A stretch of DNA of 63,661 nt, the filler included. It is 10 parts of 10 records of this genome, joined end to end, with 100 filler letters (N's around TTAATTAATTAA, not from the genome) between each part and the next. Parts side by side here need not be neighbours in the genome. Positions count along the whole stretch, not along the records: positions 40,746 to 46,210 come from SRR31156797_61183; 9 more parts are not named here. One strand, 5' to 3'. Below the pieces are notes generated by a model. It was not told where the DNA came from. It did not search any database and saw only the letters and a program-made list of their open reading frames with translations. Made by a program: the position numbers and the translations under genes. This document shows positions 1-47,771 of this stretch, in pieces (the stretch's first letter is position 1; each line of letters begins with the position of its first letter).

Positions 1-43
1 CGCAATTATCTGAACATTAACTTATCCAGACTGGTATAAAACA

Positions 44-68
44 AAACCCCGCGGATGAGGCGGGGTTG
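44..68 (-). terminator. Intrinsic terminator downstream of engB
   Basis: AACCCCGC...GCGGGGTT hairpin followed on the minus strand by TTTTGTTTT, about 20 nt after the engB stop. Confidence 0.7.
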
Positions 69-90
69 AAAGGTAGTACAAGCTGATAAT

Positions 91-759
91 TTATTCGTTG
101 TCGGCTTGTGGTTCTGAATCATCAACAAGTTCTTGTTCGATGATCGGTTGAGCTAGCGCAGGTGCAAACCATGAATCAAGTTTGTTACGCAGAACATCAA
201 CACCAAGACCATTTTGTGAAGAGAAGCCATCGACACTGACATCACCACCAAACGATTTTGCGTCGTTACGCACTTTTAAAATTTGAGCTTTTCTTGCTCC
301 ACTTTTTAGCTTGTCCGCTTTAGTCAGTAGAACTTGAACTGGAATGCCACACTCTACCGCCCAAATAATAAGTTGCTGGTCGAGATCTTTCATTGGGTGA
401 CGAATATCCATCAATACTACCAAGCCTTTTAAGCATTGGCGTTTCTGTAAGTATTCACCCAGTGATTTTTGCCACTTTTTCTTCATTTCCAGTGGTACCT
501 GAGCAAATCCGTACCCCGGTAAGTCGACGATGTGGCAGCCTTCAGTCACCTTGAACAAGTTGATTAATTGGGTGCGTCCAGGCGTTTTACTGGTTTTGGC
601 TAAACTTTTCTGATTCGTTAATCGATTGAGAGAGCTAGATTTTCCAGCATTTGAGCGTCCTGCAAACGCAATTTCAATACCTTCGTCTTCTGGAAGGTGG
701 CGAATATCTGGCGCACTGGTAATGAAATGCGTGTTTTGATAATGAATTTTTACGCTCAC
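91..759 (-). CDS. engB: Ribosome biogenesis GTPase YihA/EngB (YsxC)
   Basis: G1 [26 protein letters not shown] and TKADK motifs; likely GTG start at 759 (MSVKIHYQ) behind GGAG. Confidence 0.95.
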
Positions 760-5503: not shown

Positions 5504-5603
5504 NNNNNNNNNNNNNNNNNNNNNNNNNNNNNNNNNNNNNNNNNNNNTTAATTAATTAANNNNNNNNNNNNNNNNNNNNNNNNNNNNNNNNNNNNNNNNN
5601 NNN
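5504..5603. other. Artificial contig spacer
   Basis: N44-TTAATTAATTAA-N44 (stop codons in six frames); base composition changes across it. Confidence 0.99.
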
Positions 5604-37787: not shown

Positions 37788-40235
37788 ATGGCGGACAAAT
37801 ATTTATGCATCCACGGCCACTTTTATCAGCCCCCCAGGGAAAATCCCTGGCTGGGGATAATAGAGGACCAACCGTCGGCCCGTCCTTTTCATGACTGGAA
37901 CGAACGCATTACCAGGGAGTGCTACGCTCCCAACCTTCGCGCCAGGTTGCTGGACGAAGGCCGAATCGCCCGTCTGGTCAATAATTATCAATATATGAGC
38001 TTCAATTTCGGCCCGACCCTTCTCGCCTGGATGGCCGAAGCCAACCCCGGTGTATACAAGGACATACTGGCCGCGGACCATATAGGAGCGCAGAGAAACA
38101 ATGGACACGGCGCCGCCCTGGCCCAGGTTTACAACCATATCATTATGCCGCTGGCCAATGAAAGGGACGCCCTGATCCAGATCCGGTGGGGACTAAGGGA
38201 TTTTCAAAGCCGATTTGGAAGAAAAGCCGAAGGAATGTGGCTTTCGGAAACGGCCGCCAATACCGAAACCCTGAAACTCCTGGCCATGGAAGGATTGAAA
38301 TTCACCATACTGGCGCCTGACCAGGCCTGGAAAATAAGGCCCATGAATAATGACCCGGAATCCGGCGTTCCGTCTTCCGAGAATGACTGGGAGGATGTCA
38401 GCGGAGGCCGGGTGGATCCCAGACGCCCATACCGGGTGTTTTTAAATGAGACTAAAGATTTATATATTGATGTGTTTTTCTATGACGGACCGACTTCCAG
38501 GGCCATTGCCTATGAAAAACTATTGGCTTCGGGCTCCGGGTTTCTATCTCGCATTCAACAGGCTTTCGGAAGCGAAACGCAATGGCCGCGACTGGTCAAC
38601 CTGGCCACGGACGGGGAGTCTTACGGGCATCACTTTCAGTTCGGCGACATGGCCCTGGCCTGGGTTTTTGACCAGTTGGAAAAGGACCAATCGATCAAGG
38701 TCGTCAATTACGGATATTACCTGGAAATGTTCCCCCCGACACATGAAGCCCTTATCGTGGAGAACAGCTCGTGGAGCTGCGCCCACGGCGTGGAAAGGTG
38801 GCGTTCCAACTGCGGCTGCCATACAGGGGGAGAGGAAGGATGGAGCCAGCAGTGGCGGGTGCATTTAAGGGAAGGGCTTGACTGGCTCAGGGACCGGTTG
38901 ATTCAAATTTTCGAGGAAAAGGGCGGGGAATTGTTCCGGGATCCATGGCAGGCCAGGGATGATTTCATATCGGTGTTGCTCGATCCTTCCCATGAAGCCC
39001 GGGAAGCATTTTTGATCAAACACGCAGCCGTAAAACTGGATGAAAAGAAAAAGACCCAAGCTTTGAGCCTGATGGAATCCCAGTTGATGTCCTTATACAT
39101 GTTCACCAGTTGCGGCTGGTTTTTTGACGACATTGCCGGCCTGGAGCCTGTCCAGAACATGCGGTACGCGGCCAGGGCCATATATCTGGTAAAGGATTGG
39201 ATAAAAGGCCTGGAAGAGGGGCTTTTATCTCATTTGGCGCAGGCGCAAGTTAATTCAGATGAGTTCACAGACGGCGCGGATGTGTACAAAAGAAAAGCTC
39301 TTTCCGCCCAAATCGGCCCTTCCCGTATTGTAGCCCATTATGCTTTTCGAACCCTGGTTGAAGATGCGGCTGAAGAAAAGTGTTTCCAGGCCAAATCGGT
39401 CCGCCCATTAAAACACCGGCGATTCAGTGAATCGGGACTGACGGCTTTTTTCGGCGAAGCGGAAATTATGGATGACAGAACCGGTAAAAAGTACATTCGA
39501 AGCTTCATGTCCCTGCAATATGGCGGCGCCGGGCTGGCCTGCCTGGTTTCAGCCGGCGCCGGCCTTGATATTGACGCCATGTCGGTAGATATAAAACCGG
39601 CCCTGGAAGAGGCGTCATCGGTTCGAATAATTGAAGCCTGCGGCAGGCATCTGCCAAATGCACAGAATTTCAGTTTGGACGATCTCATACCCGACAGTCG
39701 AAACAGCTTGGTCCGTAAACTGGCCAAAGGATTTTTTAACGGTTTACGGGAATGGGTCATGGATAATTATTCGGCTCATCGGGAGGTTTTGTCCCTGTAC
39801 CGGGAATCCGGAGAACCGGCGCCGTACATAGAAAATTTCCTTTTTCGAACATTGATAAGCGACCGGCTAACCCGCCTTGTGAGTGAAGAAAGCGGCCCGG
39901 TTGACTTGGAAGCCTTGAGCGCTTTGGGCAGACAAGCCCGTGACTGGGGGGTCAGCCCGGATGAACCTTTTCTGACCAGGATGGTTTCAACGTTTTTAAG
40001 AACCCGCTTTGAGCGGCTTAACAGAAATACGGGCAGGGTTGAAATAGATGAGCTTGTCGGCCTTCTTCGCCTGATAAAAAAATATTCAATAAGCCAGAAC
40101 ATGTGGGAAAGTCAGAATCTCTTTTACGACCTTTATTCCAATCCCCGGTTCAGGGAGGAATTATCCGCGGAGCTTAAAGCCGGTTACGCCCTGCTCGGCC
40201 GCGAGTTGGGATTTACTTACTTTGACAAGCCCTGA
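37788..40235 (+). CDS. Glycoside hydrolase family 57 protein with DUF3536
   Basis: IHGHFYQPPRENPW, GMWLSE, ATDGESYGHH, SWSCAHGVERW and MFTSCGWFFD motifs. Confidence 0.88.
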   Translation: MADKYLCIHGHFYQPPRENPWLGIIEDQPSARPFHDWNERITRECYAPNLRARLLDEGRIARLVNNYQYMSFNFGPTLLAWMAEANPGVYKDILAADHIGAQRNNGHGAALAQVYNHIIMPLANERDALIQIRWGLRDFQSRFGRKAEGMWLSETAANTETLKLLAMEGLKFTILAPDQAWKIRPMNNDPESGVPSSENDWEDVSGGRVDPRRPYRVFLNETKDLYIDVFFYDGPTSRAIAYEKLLASGSGFLSRIQQAFGSETQWPRLVNLATDGESYGHHFQFGDMALAWVFDQLEKDQSIKVVNYGYYLEMFPPTHEALIVENSSWSCAHGVERWRSNCGCHTGGEEGWSQQWRVHLREGLDWLRDRLIQIFEEKGGELFRDPWQARDDFISVLLDPSHEAREAFLIKHAAVKLDEKKKTQALSLMESQLMSLYMFTSCGWFFDDIAGLEPVQNMRYAARAIYLVKDWIKGLEEGLLSHLAQAQVNSDEFTDGADVYKRKALSAQIGPSRIVAHYAFRTLVEDAAEEKCFQAKSVRPLKHRRFSESGLTAFFGEAEIMDDRTGKKYIRSFMSLQYGGAGLACLVSAGAGLDIDAMSVDIKPALEEASSVRIIEACGRHLPNAQNFSLDDLIPDSRNSLVRKLAKGFFNGLREWVMDNYSAHREVLSLYRESGEPAPYIENFLFRTLISDRLTRLVSEESGPVDLEALSALGRQARDWGVSPDEPFLTRMVSTFLRTRFERLNRNTGRVEIDELVGLLRLIKKYSISQNMWESQNLFYDLYSNPRFREELSAELKAGYALLGRELGFTYFDKP

Positions 40236-40745: not shown

Positions 40746-40834
40746 AAAGAAATCCTGGATTGCTGACAGATTTTATGGATGAAGAGTACGATAAATCCTG
40801 TATAGCCGGATGAGATTCATAATGAAGGCAGGAC

Positions 40835-41488
40835 TCAGGTGCCGAAACCTGAGGCTTTTTCTGCGTCGGCTTTGAGTTCCATCAAATACTTCTCCAGCCT
40901 GGCCTTCACGTTATCAAACTCCTTTATCGGGATCTGCGGAACCGCCCGCCGAACAAAGACAACCTCCTCCCCCCGGCAGTGAGCCACCCAGCGATTAAAC
41001 CCCTTTTCACACTCCATTCCGAAATCGACCCCGGGAACCAGAAACCGGAACACCGTCTCGGTATACAGGCCCCCGCTGCGCCCACCGGCAAGCAGGAGAT
41101 TGTAGGCATAGTCACTTATTGAAAAATGACCTTCCTCCCGATCCTTAGTAATCCCGCAGTATATCATTCCCGATTTACAACCCTTCCGGGTAAAATAACT
41201 CTCTTCGTTTCCGATCTTATAGAGCTCTCTCAACTCCTGAATTCGTGCGTCGACGGCCTCTGCGGTACCAATCGTCTCCAGGACTTCCCTGTTCAGCGGT
41301 TCCTGACATTCAAGGTTCTCCACAAACTTCATCCCCCGCTCTTCCCCATAAACCCGGAAGGCCTTCTGCCGGTTCCCGGCCTGCCTGAGAGCGAACCAAC
41401 CCACAAGAACAAGGAGAACCGCGGCCACGGAAAAGGCTGTGACTTTGTTTGAGATGATCAGGTTAATGATATTCCGGATGAGTTCCAT
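40835..41488 (-). CDS. Hypothetical protein with N-terminal membrane anchor
   Basis: 217-aa ORF with one hydrophobic helix and a GAGGGG RBS. Confidence 0.6.
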   Translation of the reverse strand: MELIRNIINLIISNKVTAFSVAAVLLVLVGWFALRQAGNRQKAFRVYGEERGMKFVENLECQEPLNREVLETIGTAEAVDARIQELRELYKIGNEESYFTRKGCKSGMIYCGITKDREEGHFSISDYAYNLLLAGGRSGGLYTETVFRFLVPGVDFGMECEKGFNRWVAHCRGEEVVFVRRAVPQIPIKEFDNVKARLEKYLMELKADAEKASGFGT

Positions 41489-41544
41489 GTGAGTTTACCC
41501 CTCTTTTTTATAGTCCTTCTGAAATCCCGCTTAGGAAAAATGCT

Positions 41545-41572
41545 TTGCTTTTAGAGACGCGCTTATTATAAT
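41545..41572 (+). promoter_or_regulatory. Sigma70 promoter abutting a start codon (probable leaderless mRNA)
   Basis: TTGCTT-N16-TATAAT-N6-ATG(41579); no Shine-Dalgarno. Confidence 0.6.
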
Positions 41573-41578
41573 GCGCAT

Positions 41579-42091
41579 ATGGAAATAAAGCACTATCCTG
41601 ATATCACATCAGCCGTTGAACTGGCCCGGCAAACCTTCCTGCGGGAAGATAATTTCTATGGATGTGCGGAAACAACCTACTTCACCCTCAAACACATTTT
41701 CAAATTGAAAGCGCCAGAGGAAACTGCGGCCGCCATGGTCCTGAATGGCGGGATCGCCTACTCCGGGTCGACCTGCGGAGCCCTGACGGGCGCGGCAATG
41801 GCCCTGGGGGAGCTGGCGGAGAAACGTATAGGCGATCATCGCAAGGCCAAACGGACGGCTCGCAAGCTGGAGATGGAACTCATGAAGGACTTCAGGAAAC
41901 GGTTCGGCAGTGAGAACTGTCTGGATTTAATCGAGCTGGATATCTCCCGGCAGGACGATCACGACCGCTTTATTGAAAGCGGAATATGGCGAACCCGCTG
42001 CATGGAACAAATCGAATATACGGTGAAATCCCTTTTTCCTCTAGGGGATCCTGAGCACTGGAAAAAAGAAACCGAAAGGGTAAACAAATGA
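41579..42091 (+). CDS. C-GCAxxG-C-C family putative redox-active protein
   Basis: GCAE, STCGALTG, SENCLDL and RTRC motifs. Confidence 0.85.
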   Translation: MEIKHYPDITSAVELARQTFLREDNFYGCAETTYFTLKHIFKLKAPEETAAAMVLNGGIAYSGSTCGALTGAAMALGELAEKRIGDHRKAKRTARKLEMELMKDFRKRFGSENCLDLIELDISRQDDHDRFIESGIWRTRCMEQIEYTVKSLFPLGDPEHWKKETERVNK

Positions 42092-45000
42092 AAAAGACTT
42101 TTCTCCTCGGAGCGTTGGCACTCCTGTTCCTGACCAGCTGTCCACCGCCGGATGACTCGATTCCCGTGGAAGGGATTTCAATAACACCGGAAACACTCAC
42201 CCTCCGAATATCGGAAACAGGACAACTGACAGCCGAAATCCAGCCCGCCGAAGCAGGCAACACCGATTACGGCTGGCGGTCTGAAAACGAGTCAGTGGCG
42301 AAGGTGGACGCATCCGGGCTTGTAACCGCCGTGGCCGAGGGGTCGGCAAAGATCACAGCCGTCACCGCCGGGGAATCGTTTACCGCGGCCTGCACGGTCA
42401 CCGTGGAACCCGCTGCGGAGAACGATGACAGTGATGATGACAGCGGAGACGTCGGCGGCAACGGAGAAACGGAGCCGGAAACTATAGCTGTAACTGGCGT
42501 GAGTTTGAATGCAACTTATCAATCAATGGAGGAAGGTGAAACTTTCCAGCTCCTTGCCACAATTGCTCCGGAAAACGCTTCCAATAAAACGGTAGTATGG
42601 AGCTCTGCCGAACCGGAGGCGGTATCCGTGGACCAGGAAGGTCTGGTCACCGCCCTGCAGCCCCGAAGAACCATAGACATCACCGTAAAAACCGAGGACG
42701 GGGAAAAAACGGCCACCTGTTCAATATCCACCAATCCTTCGTCAACGGTTATCCCGGCGGAAAGCCTGACTCTCAACTATGAGACTCTGAGCCTGGAGGT
42801 GGAAGAGACGGCTCAACTGAACACAACGGTCCTGCCGGAGAACACCACCGACACATCCGTCTCCTGGCTCTCTTTAAGTACCGATATTGTGTCAGTGGAT
42901 GAAAACGGCCTTATAACCGGCGTCTCCGCAGGCGCTGCAACGATTTACGCGTTTTCAGCCACGACCGGAGTGGAGGCTCACTGTCTGGTGACCGTTCAGC
43001 AGACAGGGACCTCGGAGACAGGAATATCCATCCAGGCCGAAGCCGCTGTTGTGGATGGAGAAAACCTCACCATCCCTGTTTTTATAGACGGTGTACAGGC
43101 CTCCTATCTGCTTTACAACGCAGCAACAGACGATAACACTATAGCCGGCTGCTCCGTCAGCTATTCCGGATTAAGCATCTTTGCCAACAGCCCCGGAGAA
43201 ACAGAGATAACCGTTACAACTACTGACGGAGCAGATTCCGCCGTCTGCCGGGTCACAGTACTGCCGCAGCCGGTCACCGGTATCAGCCTGGATCAAACGG
43301 AGACTTCAGTTCTTATGGGGGAGCTGTTTCAGCTTTCCGCGGCAATTGAACCGGTTAACGCCACCAACGGGGCCTACTCCTGGTCCTCCTCTAATCCGGA
43401 AGTTGCCTCGGTGAACGGCGGCTGGGTCAACCCAAGAAACGAAGGCTCCGCAATCATCACGGCAACATCCGAGGAGGGAGAGTTCTCAGCTTCCTGCATT
43501 GTCACGGTATCAAGCATCCCTGCCACGGGGATACTACTCTCTTCCGAAAGTCTCACCTTCTTCCACGGTGAAACCATTCCCATTGGTGTCACCTTTTTAC
43601 CGACCAACGCCTCCAACGACATTCCGGTCTGCACCTCGGATAATGAAGACTCCGTTGGAGTATCCGTCGATTACCAGGGAAGATTATCCATCTTCGGCCG
43701 CCTGCCGGGCAGCGGGACAGTTACGGTAACAAACGCTAAAAATGAAGTGTCCGCTGTCTGCGAGGTCACGGTTGAACCGGTGGAGGTAACGGGAATAGAA
43801 TTGGGCGTTAGTGTTCTGGAACTACAGAAAGGCTCAAGCAGTACCATATCTGTCACGATTCTACCCTCCAACGCCTCCGATCAGACATTGGAGTGGGAAT
43901 CTTCCGATGAATATGTCGTCTGGCCGAACAACGGACGCCCCTGGGCCTACCACGGAGGCACAGCGGTTGTCACCGCCCGTTCCGTCTCCAACCCGGAAGT
44001 GGCAGCCTCCTGTACCGTGACCGTCCTCGCACCGGTCACAGGGGTTTCGGCGGACGGACTTCTGAGCCTGCCCCTGGGAAGTACAGGACAACCGACGGTT
44101 TCTGTTTCACCGGCCGACGCCTCGGATAAATCGGTCACCTATTCCATAGCCGATCCGGATATTGCAACAGTCACCATTGACGGAACTGTAACGGCATTGA
44201 GTGAGGGAAAAACCGATCTGACAATCACCACGGCGGACGGCGGGCTTGAAGCCGTCTGCACCGTGGAGGCGGGAACGCCGGATATCCTGCCGGTGAACTC
44301 CTGGGCAGAGAGTCAGTCGGGCGGCAGCTCCTTCGGCGTCCCCGGCGATCTGATCGACATCTCCACAGTTTTTTACAACGGAGGAAGCTGCCGGGCAGAT
44401 GGAACAGAGATCGGCCTGGCCTACTACATCTCTGAAGATTCAGAGGTCACCACCGCCGACACCCTTCTTCTGGAGAGTTCAGTAGATATCGCCATTCCGA
44501 CGGCGGAAACCCAGACGGTAATCCGAACGATTACGGTCCCGGCACTGGATTTCGGGGTCTACCACATCGGCTGCATTGTCGATACAGAAAACGAGTTGCC
44601 GGAGAAAGACGAAATAAACAACACGACGGACTCAAGCGCCACGGCCCTCTTCACCCTGGTGGAGGACGAGGCGCCAGCCTCCTCCGGAGCCTTCAAGATC
44701 GTCAACTCCTGGGGAACAGGCGGCTGGGAGCATACTGCCGACGGCCACTACTGGGTGGATTACGAATCGGCCAAATCTCTGGAATTGGAACTCTACTACT
44801 ACCATGTCAATTTCGACGAGGTCTATGAGCCGAGTCTTTTGGCGGTTTACCAGGTCTCCCACCCCGAGCGCGGGGAGTGCCGGATATCCTTCGGCCTGGG
44901 GGATCCTGCCGATCCTTTTATTGAAAAACATTTCCAGGATATAACCTTCTCCGCCGGAGAGGTAACGGCCAACCCCTTCCCGAACAACAAAATCGCCCTG

Positions 45001-46185
45001 GACATTACCGAGTTCGCCGCCTTTATCAACGACTATGACCTTTTTATGCGGGTTAACAACCTGGACGGCGAAGGGGGTGAGGTCCTCTCCTGTTCCGTTG
45101 AATTCTACTCCGACTTTGATACCGCACCCTTCCGGACCCTGAGTGTTTCCGGCGGCACCTTCCCGGCCCAGACCGAAACCCTCTTTACAATTGAAACCGC
45201 CGGCAGCCTGACCGCAGGCGAAGAAGAATCCCTGGAGCGTTCGGTTCGCGCCGCCTACACAGCCCTTACCCTGACCGAAGAGTCCCCCGATCCGGCGGAG
45301 CTTGCGGTGGATAAGGCGGCCTTCGGTGTTTATGAAGAGGGGAAAAACTACAACGCCATCGTCAACGGCCGGGGAACGGGTCTGGTGCCGCCGACCGAAG
45401 AGGAGTGGGCCTCGATGGTAAAACTCCGGACTTCCTCCTCAAGTCTGATGCGGGGCCTTATCCCCAATTCTGTGGACAATTCAAACTCCATATACTTTCC
45501 CCCGATTGGTGACCAGGGACAGGAAGGCTCCTGCGCCGCCTGGTCTGTCGGCTACTACATCCAGACCTACAACGAGGCCCGCAGAAGGGGCTGGGATTTA
45601 AGTGCTGTGAACTGGATCTCCAACTATCCGGACTCCGGAGAACCTGACGGGGAGATGGATAAAATTATTAGCCCCGAGTTCCTCTATCATCTGCTCAACA
45701 GAGGCTGGGACAACGGCATCTCTACCGTCGGTGCCGTGAACTTTGCCACCCGGATCGGCGGAGCCACTTGGAATAATGCCCCATACGAAGCCCCCGCTTC
45801 CAACAGCTCCGGCATCAGTAACGAAGTTACCTCCTGGCCTTCGGAAACCGCCTTCCGAAACGCCGGCCGCTACCGGGGGAGCGAGGCGATGAACGCGGGA
45901 ACCTTCAACTACCAGTCTGCGGGCTACTTTCAGCTGAAAACAGATGAGGATATCAAACTTTTGAAAACTCTTCTGGCGGCGGGCTACTGCGTCACGACTT
46001 CCGTCAGGGCCCAGACGGTAGTCGATCCGGATAATCCCGATTCCTGGTCCGGGATGTATAACGAGATGAACGGTTTTGACACCCTTCGCCTCTATGATCG
46101 CGGCCCGGTCAATGAAGACCACGCCAACACCATCGTCGGGTTCAAGGAGGGAGCGGCCTGGGATTTTGAAAACCCGGAGAATTAG
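42088..46185 (+). CDS. Surface lipoprotein with Ig-like (Big_2) repeats, a CARDB-like domain and a circularly permuted papain-family (C1A) cysteine peptidase
   Basis: Lipobox LTSC; repeated V.GISL...P.NA...W.SS...VA.VD..G.VTA units; FKIVNSWG (N873), GDQGQEGSCAAW (C1149) and DHANTIVGF (H1345). Confidence 0.8.
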   Translation: MKKTFLLGALALLFLTSCPPPDDSIPVEGISITPETLTLRISETGQLTAEIQPAEAGNTDYGWRSENESVAKVDASGLVTAVAEGSAKITAVTAGESFTAACTVTVEPAAENDDSDDDSGDVGGNGETEPETIAVTGVSLNATYQSMEEGETFQLLATIAPENASNKTVVWSSAEPEAVSVDQEGLVTALQPRRTIDITVKTEDGEKTATCSISTNPSSTVIPAESLTLNYETLSLEVEETAQLNTTVLPENTTDTSVSWLSLSTDIVSVDENGLITGVSAGAATIYAFSATTGVEAHCLVTVQQTGTSETGISIQAEAAVVDGENLTIPVFIDGVQASYLLYNAATDDNTIAGCSVSYSGLSIFANSPGETEITVTTTDGADSAVCRVTVLPQPVTGISLDQTETSVLMGELFQLSAAIEPVNATNGAYSWSSSNPEVASVNGGWVNPRNEGSAIITATSEEGEFSASCIVTVSSIPATGILLSSESLTFFHGETIPIGVTFLPTNASNDIPVCTSDNEDSVGVSVDYQGRLSIFGRLPGSGTVTVTNAKNEVSAVCEVTVEPVEVTGIELGVSVLELQKGSSSTISVTILPSNASDQTLEWESSDEYVVWPNNGRPWAYHGGTAVVTARSVSNPEVAASCTVTVLAPVTGVSADGLLSLPLGSTGQPTVSVSPADASDKSVTYSIADPDIATVTIDGTVTALSEGKTDLTITTADGGLEAVCTVEAGTPDILPVNSWAESQSGGSSFGVPGDLIDISTVFYNGGSCRADGTEIGLAYYISEDSEVTTADTLLLESSVDIAIPTAETQTVIRTITVPALDFGVYHIGCIVDTENELPEKDEINNTTDSSATALFTLVEDEAPASSGAFKIVNSWGTGGWEHTADGHYWVDYESAKSLELELYYYHVNFDEVYEPSLLAVYQVSHPERGECRISFGLGDPADPFIEKHFQDITFSAGEVTANPFPNNKIALDITEFAAFINDYDLFMRVNNLDGEGGEVLSCSVEFYSDFDTAPFRTLSVSGGTFPAQTETLFTIETAGSLTAGEEESLERSVRAAYTALTLTEESPDPAELAVDKAAFGVYEEGKNYNAIVNGRGTGLVPPTEEEWASMVKLRTSSSSLMRGLIPNSVDNSNSIYFPPIGDQGQEGSCAAWSVGYYIQTYNEARRRGWDLSAVNWISNYPDSGEPDGEMDKIISPEFLYHLLNRGWDNGISTVGAVNFATRIGGATWNNAPYEAPASNSSGISNEVTSWPSETAFRNAGRYRGSEAMNAGTFNYQSAGYFQLKTDEDIKLLKTLLAAGYCVTTSVRAQTVVDPDNPDSWSGMYNEMNGFDTLRLYDRGPVNEDHANTIVGFKEGAAWDFENPEN

Positions 46186-46210
46186 CCTCCCCGGCCGGGG
46201 TTTATTTTGC

Positions 46211-46310: not shown

Positions 46311-46493
46311 CCGATCATTTATTTTTGCCATAAGGAGTTTTCATTCTTCCGGATCTGTTTTATGATGCGTGTTCAAATTTGATAAGAAATGGCCGTGTAA
46401 CCCAAAGAAACTTGATTTATGGAAAACAGGCCCTATAATAAGAGGAACCCCGGCGGAAAGGGGGAACTCGGAATCTCCGGAGAAGAATTGTAT

Positions 46494-47771
46494 ATGACTA
46501 AATGTTTGAGTCTCATCCTGGGCGGCGGCAAGGGGACGCGACTGTACCCTCTTACCAAGGAAAGGGCCAAGCCCGCCGTACCCTTCGGAGGAAAATACCG
46601 TCTGGTGGACATCCCCATCTCCAACTGCATCAACTCGGGGATCCGCAATATATTCGTACTGACCCAGTTCAACACGGCCTCCCTCCACTTCCATATCAGC
46701 AGCACCTACCGCTTCGATGTGTTTACCGGAGGATTTATCGAAGTTCTGGCGGCGGAGCAGACCTTTACCAACAGTGACTGGTACATGGGAACCGCAGACG
46801 CGGTGCGCAAGAACGTTTTCCATCTGCGGAACCAGGAAGCCACGCATTATATGATCCTCTCGGGGGACCAGCTCTACAGGATGGACCTTAAGGACTTCTT
46901 CAGCAGGCATCTGGAGAGCGGAGCCGACGTCACCATCGCCGCGACCCCGGTCATCCGCAAGGACGCGGATCAGCTGGGCATCCTCCATATGGACAGGAAG
47001 GGCGATATCGACAGCTTCCTGGAGAAACCGGGACCCCAAAAGAATATCGATGATCATAAGATCCCCGACGGCATCAAGAAAAAAGAAGGGATAGCCCCCC
47101 AGAGGGACTATCTGGCCTCCATGGGCATCTACATCTTCAACGCCGACGCCCTTCACAGGGGACTGGATAACGACTTCACCGATTTCGGCAAGGAAGTCAT
47201 CCCCATGATGATCAGAGACTTCAATGTGAGGGCCCATGTTTACAAGGGCTACTGGGAGGACATCGGAACCATCAAAAACTTCTTCGATGCCAACCTGAAC
47301 CTGGCCACTCCCCGCCCCTTCTTCAACCTCTACGATATGGATTATCCCATCTACACCCATAGACGGGACCTGCCCCCTTCCAGAATCAACTCCTGTCACT
47401 TCCACAGGGCTCTGGCCACCGAGGGCTCCATCATCAACGGCGAGTCGGTGGTGGACTCCCTTGTGGGCGCGAGGACCTTTATCCACAAAGGGGCCACCCT
47501 GGACCATGTCTACGCCATGGGAGCCGATGTCTATGAGACCGTAAGAGACAAGGAGATCAACGCCGCCATGGGCCGTCCCAATCTGGGAGTCGGTCCGGGA
47601 ACGCAGATCAGGCGCTGTATCATCGACAAGGGCGTGCGCATAGGACAGGACTGCCGCATCGGTATGGATGACAAGCCTCTGGCCGACTACGATGGTGAGA
47701 ACTACTTCGTAAGAGACGGGATCATCATCATACCGAAGAAGGCTATCATTCCCGACGGCACGGTCATCTGA
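46494..47771 (+). CDS. glgC: Glucose-1-phosphate adenylyltransferase
   Basis: ILGGGKGTRLYPLT..RAKPAVPFGGKYRL, LSGDQLYRMD, FLEKP and YWEDIGT motifs; likely ATG at 46494. Confidence 0.95.
   Translation: MTKCLSLILGGGKGTRLYPLTKERAKPAVPFGGKYRLVDIPISNCINSGIRNIFVLTQFNTASLHFHISSTYRFDVFTGGFIEVLAAEQTFTNSDWYMGTADAVRKNVFHLRNQEATHYMILSGDQLYRMDLKDFFSRHLESGADVTIAATPVIRKDADQLGILHMDRKGDIDSFLEKPGPQKNIDDHKIPDGIKKKEGIAPQRDYLASMGIYIFNADALHRGLDNDFTDFGKEVIPMMIRDFNVRAHVYKGYWEDIGTIKNFFDANLNLATPRPFFNLYDMDYPIYTHRRDLPPSRINSCHFHRALATEGSIINGESVVDSLVGARTFIHKGATLDHVYAMGADVYETVRDKEINAAMGRPNLGVGPGTQIRRCIIDKGVRIGQDCRIGMDDKPLADYDGENYFVRDGIIIIPKKAIIPDGTVI

Follow-up and report, generated by a model that had tools for sequence, protein, structure and literature searches.

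Can a papain-family peptidase be built from a rotated chain, in which the strand that carries the catalytic Asn comes before the catalytic Cys and His? This question is raised by one gene in a window of 63,661 nt, which is the whole stretch of DNA that was analysed. The open reading frame (ORF) at 42088..46185 on the plus strand encodes 1365 residues plus a stop, and in its last 500 residues the motifs of a papain-like enzyme occur in the order Asn873 ... Gln1143/Cys1149 ... His1345, not in the linear order Gln-Cys-His-Asn. An earlier note on this DNA had read the gene as a surface lipoprotein ending in a naturally circularly permuted C1A protease, cut in the loop between the His and Asn strands, with an inhibitory prosegment that had become internal and might be lost to give a two-chain enzyme tethered on a stalk. 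Here we investigate this proposal through comparison with related proteins and genomes and through structure prediction. With high confidence, the last 500 residues of the protein belong to the papain (C1) peptidase family and are genuinely permuted, in a circular permutation of natural origin.

The residues named in the earlier note, and the stop, are all where it had placed them, within one ORF. The catalytic Asn873 (44704..44706, +) is contained in GAFKIVNSWG, about 275 residues ahead of the oxyanion-hole Gln1143 (45514..45516, +) and the catalytic Cys1149 (45532..45534, +). The catalytic His1345 (46120..46122, +) is contained in DHANTIVGF, and the stop codon at 46183-46185 follows 20 residues after it, with no reading frame continuing beyond this stop in any other frame. 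The module opens with the Asn-strand segment (GAFKIVNSWG...HYWVDYE..., residues 867-904, 44686..44799, +), which includes Asn873, Ser874 and Trp875 and, from homology, the alignment and the model contacts described below, is the counterpart of the C-terminal strands of the canonical papain fold. A beta-sandwich domain (residues 905-1049, 44800..45234, +) comes next, then a flexible linker (residues 1050-1059, 45235..45264, +), a pro-like segment (GVYEEGKNYN...GRGTGLVPPTEEEW, residues 1060-1123, 45265..45456, +) and the main catalytic part (residues 1124-1354, 45457..46149, +), which by its sequence and structure matches comprises a mature-like N-terminus, Gln1143, the Cys1149 helix and the His1345 strand. 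The chain ends with the tail GAAWDFENPEN and the stop (46150..46185, +). In what follows the piece means residues 860-1365 (506 residues), and piece residue numbers count from 860.

What do the relatives of this module look like? A word-indexed search with the piece found 65 proteins. When 1.84 billion cluster representatives were scanned in full with HMMER, 2742 matched at E<=0.001 and 294 of these reached E<=1e-30. The relatives are of two kinds. The first kind matches the whole 506-residue query in a single stretch at its own C-terminus. In the second kind the query is matched in two stretches near the N-terminus of the relative, and the order is that of an ordinary papain: a signal peptide, a GVYEEGKNYN..GHGTGLRPPTEEEW segment, IGNQGxEGSC, NHANTIVGYDDNFGPY..., GAFKVANSWG and then the beta domain. 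The beta-sandwich therefore follows the NSWG strand in the canonical relatives also. In a BLASTP comparison with one of these, the canonical protein P0043, piece residues 199-495 align with subject residues 33-284 (E 2e-50, 37% identity) and piece residues 8-148 align with subject residues 298-432 (E 6e-32, 45% identity). The same two blocks are thus matched in reversed order, which is a circular permutation.

The alignment with P0043 also places the old and new ends of the chain. Homology to the canonical N-termini begins at piece residue 199, and the linker at residues 1050-1059 is the new joint, linking the old C-terminus, which is the sandwich, to the old N-terminus, which is the pro-like segment. 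The latter is homologous to the region after the signal peptide in the canonical relatives, and it has indeed become internal, as had been proposed. In the canonical proteins NHANTIVGY, on the His strand, and GAFKVANSWG, on the Asn strand, are joined by a loop of about 15 residues. The chain of the window protein ends inside this loop (…VGFKEGAAWDFENPEN) and its module begins at GAFK, so the cut lies in the His-Asn hairpin, where the earlier note had put it. The C-terminal tail is the first half of this hairpin that remains, and its pattern, KEGxxWxPxxP[DE], is conserved in relatives. Two tail lengths are seen among permuted proteins, read from relatives P0058-P0061 and P0115 and from loci L040-L062. 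Those of Spirochaetota and Riflebacteria extend 19-23 residues past the His with a KEGxxWxPxxPD tail, and those of Thermotogota and Halanaerobiales extend 9-12 residues and end in …VGFYN or VGYEE.

Order classes were assigned by phmmer with the two blocks as queries to 201 proteins, made up of the 65 word-search matches, the 150 best HMMER representatives, which overlap with these, and the window protein. There are 101 permuted, 96 canonical and 4 partial proteins. None of the 201 has a duplicated block; the single motif-based candidate for a tandem-duplicate or split intermediate, P0115, had been picked up through a spurious pattern match to a domain upstream. A scan of prokaryote genomes, one for each species, gave 279 stretches that code for relatives. 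Among the best 80 of these loci the order is permuted in 66, canonical in 13 and partial in 1. The permuted loci are labelled by record title as Spirochaetota (33), Thermotogota (15), Bacillota (Halanaerobiales; 5), and Riflebacteria, Cloacimonadota, Pseudomonadota and Bathyarchaeota (1 each); the other 9 are labelled only 'Bacteria' or were unclassified by the script, several being Riflebacteria by title. In 59 of the 66 at least 300 nt of the locus lie beyond the end of the ORF, and where motif patterns located the His the ORF stops 9-34 residues past this residue. The closest relative among the best 80 of the 279 loci, L001, is 62% identical, lies on a 58.5-kb contig and has the same architecture in 1336 residues; it ends ...NHANTIVGYKEGASWDSANPEN and is followed by other genes. 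Two of the permuted loci, L038 (a 1576-bp contig labelled Candidatus Bathyarchaeota) and L027 (labelled as a proteobacterium), are on very short contigs of metagenome-assembled genomes, where mis-binning is as likely as transfer.

The catalytic residues are conserved in both kinds of relative. When 96 permuted and 86 canonical proteins are aligned by block, the Gln, Cys and Asn are each present in 96/96 permuted and 86/86 canonical sequences and the His in 95/96 permuted (the other has a gap) and 86/86 canonical. The Ser after the Asn is found in 96/96 and 82/86, and the Trp in 94/96 and 85/86, respectively. The catalytic Gln, Cys, His and Asn residues are likewise invariant in alignment A1, which has 45 rows of permuted sequences. 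Conservation of this kind at 30-60% identity across phyla argues for the permuted family being an active enzyme rather than a relic.

Is this a member of family C1, and is it C1A? The motifs typical of C1 (QGxxGSC, HA..VGY and NSWG, with the catalytic Gln, Cys, His and Asn) are all present. The earlier note had predicted two partial Peptidase_C1 matches in reversed order, and this prediction failed, as the window protein does not reach the PF00112 gathering cut-off of 20.7 bits. Neither it nor its pieces have a match to any Pfam peptidase family, and NCBIfam gave nothing relevant for the protein. PF00112 is reached by the three permuted relatives that were tested (P0058, 39.1 bits; P0060, 36.4; P0061, 35.8), in which only profile positions 4/5-175 of 220 are matched, ending at the last residues of the protein. 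Among five canonical relatives tested, P0063 (48.3 bits), P0064 (36.2) and P0066 (55.7) match over profile positions 2/15-204/205, and P0043 and P0046 have no match. The A1 profile, when compared with PDB sequences, finds procathepsin K with E 3.2e-7; the stretches for Cys, His and NSWG are matched separately and their order in the profile is reversed, and that for NSWG is insignificant by itself. The C-terminal ends of xylellain and of Lpg2622 match the N-terminal part of the same profile. In the ESM Atlas the piece adjoins clusters automatically named C1 family peptidase (score 0.93). Membership of the papain (C1) family is therefore retained from the note, and the label C1A is more specific than the data allow: this is a divergent C1-family clade, and PF00112 is blind to the window protein.

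The fold agrees with this placement. An AlphaFold2 model of the piece, built with A1, has a predicted local distance difference test (pLDDT) score of 88.4 and a predicted template modelling (pTM) score of 0.91. Block means of pLDDT are 93 for the N-terminal strands (piece 8-14 and 28-32) and 87-95 for the pro-like segment, and the single low block (57, at piece 191-200) is the joint of the old C- and N-termini. The model has the two lobes of a papain-like fold. The best Foldseek match is xylellain (E 3.9e-5), followed by cathepsin C and procathepsin K. In VIA-align, xylellain gives Z 16.1 with a root-mean-square deviation (rmsd) of 3.8 over 213 aligned residues (model 226..501, chain 26..250), and procathepsin K gives Z 14.8 with rmsd 3.5 over 211 (model 19..505, chain 61P..177). 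The mature cathepsins K and S give Z 12.4-12.7 with rmsd about 3.0 over 174-176 residues, from model 264/266 to 505 and from chain residue 1 to 170-179 of about 215. Because this match ends at 170-179, the C-terminal part of the model covers cathepsin only as far as a little beyond the His strand, and about 40 residues at the cathepsin C-terminus, which include the Asn-Ser-Trp strand, have no partner in this part of the model.

Does the N-terminal Asn strand supply the missing part? The piece was divided into residues 1-195 and 196-506 and the two were predicted together as separate chains, with the alignment not used. The pair scored 0.85 and the best of three controls 0.00; this mark is reached by 51 of 78 solved complexes and by 2 of 108 mismatched pairs. 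The runs share at least 82% of their contacts, with partner pLDDT of at least 82. The top contacts are predicted between the His strand (piece 489-493) and the Asn strand (piece 9-13), in antiparallel register, and Ser15, which is the Ser of NSWG, is predicted to contact piece residues 283/284, including the oxyanion Gln, and 293. This predicted pairing of the two strands is the papain arrangement. The reversed BLASTP segments, the order and residues across the family, the structure matches and the strand pairing together bear out the central claim of the earlier note, a natural circular permutation of a papain-family domain.

How might the permutation have arisen? To our knowledge all other C1 enzymes have the canonical order, and the permuted order is therefore taken to be derived. 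In a tree of the two blocks the permuted label changes once, with support of 100 for the separating branch (FastTree, 182 rows, after 15 of 197 had been dropped for short block coverage and with the blocks cut using the permuted query). The same split has support of 99 in a quick IQ-TREE run (LG+G4) on a random 60 of the 182 rows. Gene transfer is implied by the occurrence in several phyla. A single origin, with later spread from one phylum of anaerobic bacteria to another, is the most likely history of the permutation.

Chain order is also fully correlated with the placement of the module in the protein. The permuted module is at the extreme C-terminus in 101/101 proteins, with a median of 331 residues upstream, whereas the canonical module starts within 130 residues of the N-terminus in 95/96 and has at least 100 residues downstream in 94/96. 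A lipobox-like start is present in 59 of 91 permuted as against 8 of 87 canonical proteins that begin with Met, and a hydrophobic C-terminal stretch is present in no permuted and 14 canonical proteins. The permutation thus goes together with a shift of the enzyme from the N- to the C-terminal end of multidomain proteins. That chain order is linked so strictly to position, with the enzyme either first or last in the protein, suggests that selection lay behind the rearrangement. The domains upstream of the permuted module are very variable, and include CARDB, Big_2, FN3, chitobiase C-terminal, Flg_new and CBM25 domains.

The chain of the module starts at the Asn-Ser-Trp strand with Asn873 and continues into the beta-sandwich, from which the short new linker leads to the pro-like segment and the lobe with Gln1143 and Cys1149, and it ends just past the His1345 strand. 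On folding, the N-terminal Asn strand would lie antiparallel to the C-terminal His strand, rebuilding the Cys-His-Asn triad and the Gln oxyanion hole, and peptide bonds would be cleaved by the normal thiolate-imidazolium mechanism. With an N-terminal lipid anchor, a stalk of eight immunoglobulin-like (Ig-like) domains and a CARDB-like domain would carry the enzyme at its outer end, and the enzyme most likely works as a protease outside the cell or on its surface. Its activity in catalysis, its place at the surface and what becomes of the pro-like segment are all matters that we infer from these comparisons. The placement of the module behind an N-terminal anchor and stalk fits the idea of a tethered enzyme in the earlier note. 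Extended to its full form, this idea makes the permutation an adaptation for zymogen display on an N-terminal lipid anchor, with excision of the prosegment giving a non-covalent two-chain protease, and with a single origin, transfer among Spirochaetota, Thermotogota, Halanaerobiales and Riflebacteria, and first occurrence within C1. We regard the full form as tentative, possible rather than probable, and the same can be said of the two-chain outcome overall.

Several points weigh against these readings, among them the restrictions on the trees given above. No intermediate, either a tandem duplicate (Cys-His-Asn-Cys-His) or a split pair of genes, was seen in the 201 proteins or the best 80 of the 279 loci. 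PF00112 has no match in the window protein, either whole (E<=1) or as three C-terminal pieces (E<=10), and in phmmer the protein matches solved C1 enzymes weakly, near the Cys motif, with E 0.4 for procathepsin K and E 0.5 for ficin. In the two-chain prediction, piece residue His486 is absent from the list of cross-chain contacts, although 484 and 488-497 are present, and contact between the Asn and the His is inferred from the strand register and not read directly. The good score of the two chains may also reflect a memory of, or likeness to, solved papain folds, although such likeness is itself what is at issue here. Finally, the Logan assembly comes from an independent assembler and is of the only public run listed as containing this DNA, with no RNA run listed; that run is probably the same sample, and the assembly is not independent data.

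Could the rotated order be an artefact of assembly? The gene is on a 5.5-kb contig that ends 25 nt past its stop, and so a misjoin or a collapsed tandem duplication, which the earlier note had named as grounds for giving up its claim, had to be weighed seriously. There are also two Logan contig breaks within the Ig-repeat region, at 43236-43265 and 43941-43970, inside the Big_2 repeats, with a 735-bp contig bridging them; the stalk repeats are probably the cause of the short contigs of this assembly. Both breaks are upstream of the permuted module, which lies on a single 22.7-kb Logan contig. This contig is identical to the window over 43941-46210 (0 differences) and extends further than the window contig does. 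The same order is present in the 66 permuted loci of other genomes, on contigs that reach Mb scale and in a cultured Pleomorphochaeta isolate (L075), and in half of the proteins examined. As an account of the order as such the artefact is already refuted, and we give it practically no chance. It could still be argued that two unrelated remnants are being read as one enzyme, with NSWG as the decayed tail of a lost upstream protease and the C-terminal Cys and His as a truncated dyad enzyme. The parts are 275 residues apart, and some clan CA enzymes do work as Cys/His dyads (PMC10318531). This is very improbable, as in short natural members (P0018, P0041 and P0059) nothing but a signal peptide and a linker precedes the permuted module, which starts at GAFK, the Asn, Ser and Trp are conserved, and the model gives one confident fold for the whole piece in which the strands are predicted to pair well above any control. 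Somewhat less remote, if still improbable, is a pseudoenzyme that keeps the fold and serves as a binding module without peptidase activity. Catalysis here is a prediction and the domain has diverged enough to escape PF00112, but the near-invariance of six active-site positions in several phyla points to selection on catalysis.

The reading with the best claim to be considered beside the two-chain outcome concerns the pro-like segment, and accepts the permutation as real. In it the segment is never cut out and no two-chain form arises; the segment would instead have a lasting structural or gating role and might restrict entry to the cleft, as happens in C1 enzymes of the exopeptidase type. We consider this quite possible, though short of probable. 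Its TG motif has the T in 89/96 and the G in 96/96 permuted proteins, and each in 86/86 canonical proteins, which is unusual for a propeptide, but C1A propeptides also contain conserved motifs. The segment is modelled as packed on the enzyme with high pLDDT, and in the two-chain prediction it touches the N-terminal part at piece residues 216, 219, 225-226, 234-237, 246-247 and 254. Against a permanent element, the canonical relatives carry the segment directly after the signal peptide, which is the position of a propeptide, and the segment is overlapped by the structures of zymogens, which align from model residue 226 (xylellain) or 231 (procathepsin B), whereas the mature enzymes begin at 264-266. 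That the segment is inhibitory and is excised to leave a tethered two-chain enzyme, as the earlier note had suggested, is an idea drawn from its position and from this overlap with zymogens.

What would a permuted papain mean? The papain family is among the best-studied, and a large natural lineage with a rotated order, cut between two catalytic residues, is a new topology for it and would, if true, be the first natural circular permutation within family C1. A well-conserved permuted papain lineage, apparently of single origin and at the tip of putative lipoprotein stalks, is supported by the data presented here. About half of the relatives that were retrieved (101/201) are permuted and could now be annotated. 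Because Pfam misses the window protein, such proteins are labelled as hypothetical or by their Ig-like domains only. The internal pro-like segment provides a natural test case for zymogen activation and for folding versus chain connectivity. If the display idea is true, a canonical enzyme at the tip of a stalk would be freed on removal of its propeptide, whereas the permuted form would keep its Asn strand and sandwich on the stalk, and after excision the enzyme would consist of two chains joined through strand complementation within the catalytic sheet. For protein engineering, papain-like scaffolds that are split or permuted have a practical interest as well.

The remainder of the protein is the anchor and stalk. 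The candidate lipoprotein-type signal peptide (MKKTFLLGALALLFLTSC, 42088..42141, +), with a lipobox-like LLFLTSC and candidate lipidated Cys18, was identified by reading of the sequence, and its Pfam LPAM_1 match is weak (E 0.73). The stalk (residues ~26-729, 42163..44274, +) is made of eight Big_2 (bacterial Ig-like) domains, matched by PF02368 in 8 stretches (E 1.5e-86), and its end was set at AVCTVEAG. A CARDB-like beta domain (residues 778-847, 44419..44628, +) is suggested by a weak match to PF07705 (E 0.1), a family that is precomputed directly upstream of the module in many homologues. The beta-sandwich of the module, which is the second BLASTP segment in the comparison with P0043, has a pLDDT of 93.2 when modelled alone. 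Its structural matches are generic: a carbohydrate-binding module (Z 6.5), PLAT domains (6.4-6.3) and the furin P domain (5.6), none of which reaches what VIA calls a meaningful level. Foldseek gave no match for it at E<=0.001. An alignment of canonical and permuted sandwich rows (A2) was discarded for another (A3), as it was misaligned, with canonical rows at 0-20% identity.

The window is made of ten short contigs joined by nine linkers of N...TTAATTAATTAA...N, at positions 5548, 14301, 22646, 29690, 35056, 40690, 46255, 51442 and 57250, in which TTAATTAATTAA is a six-frame stop linker. Gene neighbourhood across the joints is therefore meaningless. The contig of the protease gene is 40746..46210. 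Immediately upstream, 41579..42091 (+) encodes a 170-residue C_GCAxxG_C_C (putative redox-active) protein (Pfam E 5.7e-17). The two genes may be co-transcribed, given that the end of this one overlaps the protease start codon by 4 nt. The upstream gene arrangement at the locus of the closest relative, L001, differs from that of the window. A 217-residue ORF at 40835..41488 (-) has no Pfam family at E<=0.001. Downstream of the protease gene a terminator-like hairpin (46184-46202) and T-rich tail occupy 46184..46210 (+) up to the end of the contig; the evidence for a terminator is weak, as the scan found 8 such sites against 5.3 expected in shuffles. On the neighbouring contigs there are ordinary glycogen-metabolism genes, a GH57/DUF3536 glycoside hydrolase at 37788..40235 (+) and a GlgC-type glucose-1-phosphate adenylyltransferase at 46419..47771 (+).

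How does the window protein compare with known systems? The closest are the canonical multidomain C1-like peptidases (P0043, P0045 and P0050; L064-L080), uncharacterised proteins of archaea and FCB-group bacteria, with L064-L080 labelled Bathyarchaeia, Thermoplasmata, Halobacteria, Bacteroidales, Ignavibacteriaceae and others. At 36-45% identity they share with it the pro-like segment with GVYEEGKNYN and GHGTGLxPPTEEEW, the Gln/Cys motif, NHANTIVGY, GAFKVANSWG and the beta-sandwich. They differ in having the pro, Cys, His, Asn and sandwich elements in that order and at the N-terminus, with other domains or anchors downstream, and they are on the other side of the split in the tree. The best structural match, xylellain of Xylella fastidiosa (PDB 3OIS), includes part of its N-terminal pro-region in the match. 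Xylellain and Lpg2622 of Legionella (PDB 6A0N) are short bacterial C1A enzymes of canonical order, with a single domain, about 16-19% identity and no beta-sandwich. Papain, the cathepsins K, L, S and B and their zymogens are alike in fold (Z 12-15), in the Gln, Cys, His, Asn and NSWG motifs and in the overlap with the end of the propeptide. They differ in their unrotated order, which stops the match at chain residue 170-179 of about 215, and the pro-like segment is internal in the window protein.

Has a permuted papain been described before? No report of a circularly permuted C1 or papain-family peptidase was found in the literature, with coverage that was partial for subscription journals and supplements, so that an earlier mention is possible. 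A 2023 phylogenomic study of the papain family (PMC10380794), in its accessible text, does not analyse multidomain prokaryotic C1A proteins in detail and has no occurrence of 'permut'. The accessible part of a 2023 survey of papain-like peptidases (PMC10318531) describes circular permutations in NlpC/P60, LRAT, PPPDE (C97) and LupA and irregular strand permutations in OTU enzymes, while in its account the papain/cathepsin cluster retains all core elements and no permuted C1 member is named. According to the same text, the permutations of NlpC/P60 and its kin involve the Cys-bearing helix, alone or with the first strand (PMC10318531). NlpC/P60, LRAT, PPPDE and LupA and the window protein are alike in being natural permutations of a papain-like core with the catalytic residues kept in three dimensions. 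A relocated helix would put the catalytic Cys after the His in the sequence of the permuted NlpC/P60, LRAT and PPPDE enzymes. The window protein is unlike these in that Cys1149 comes before His1345, only the Asn strand has been relocated, and it is the His strand and the Asn strand that the cut separates.

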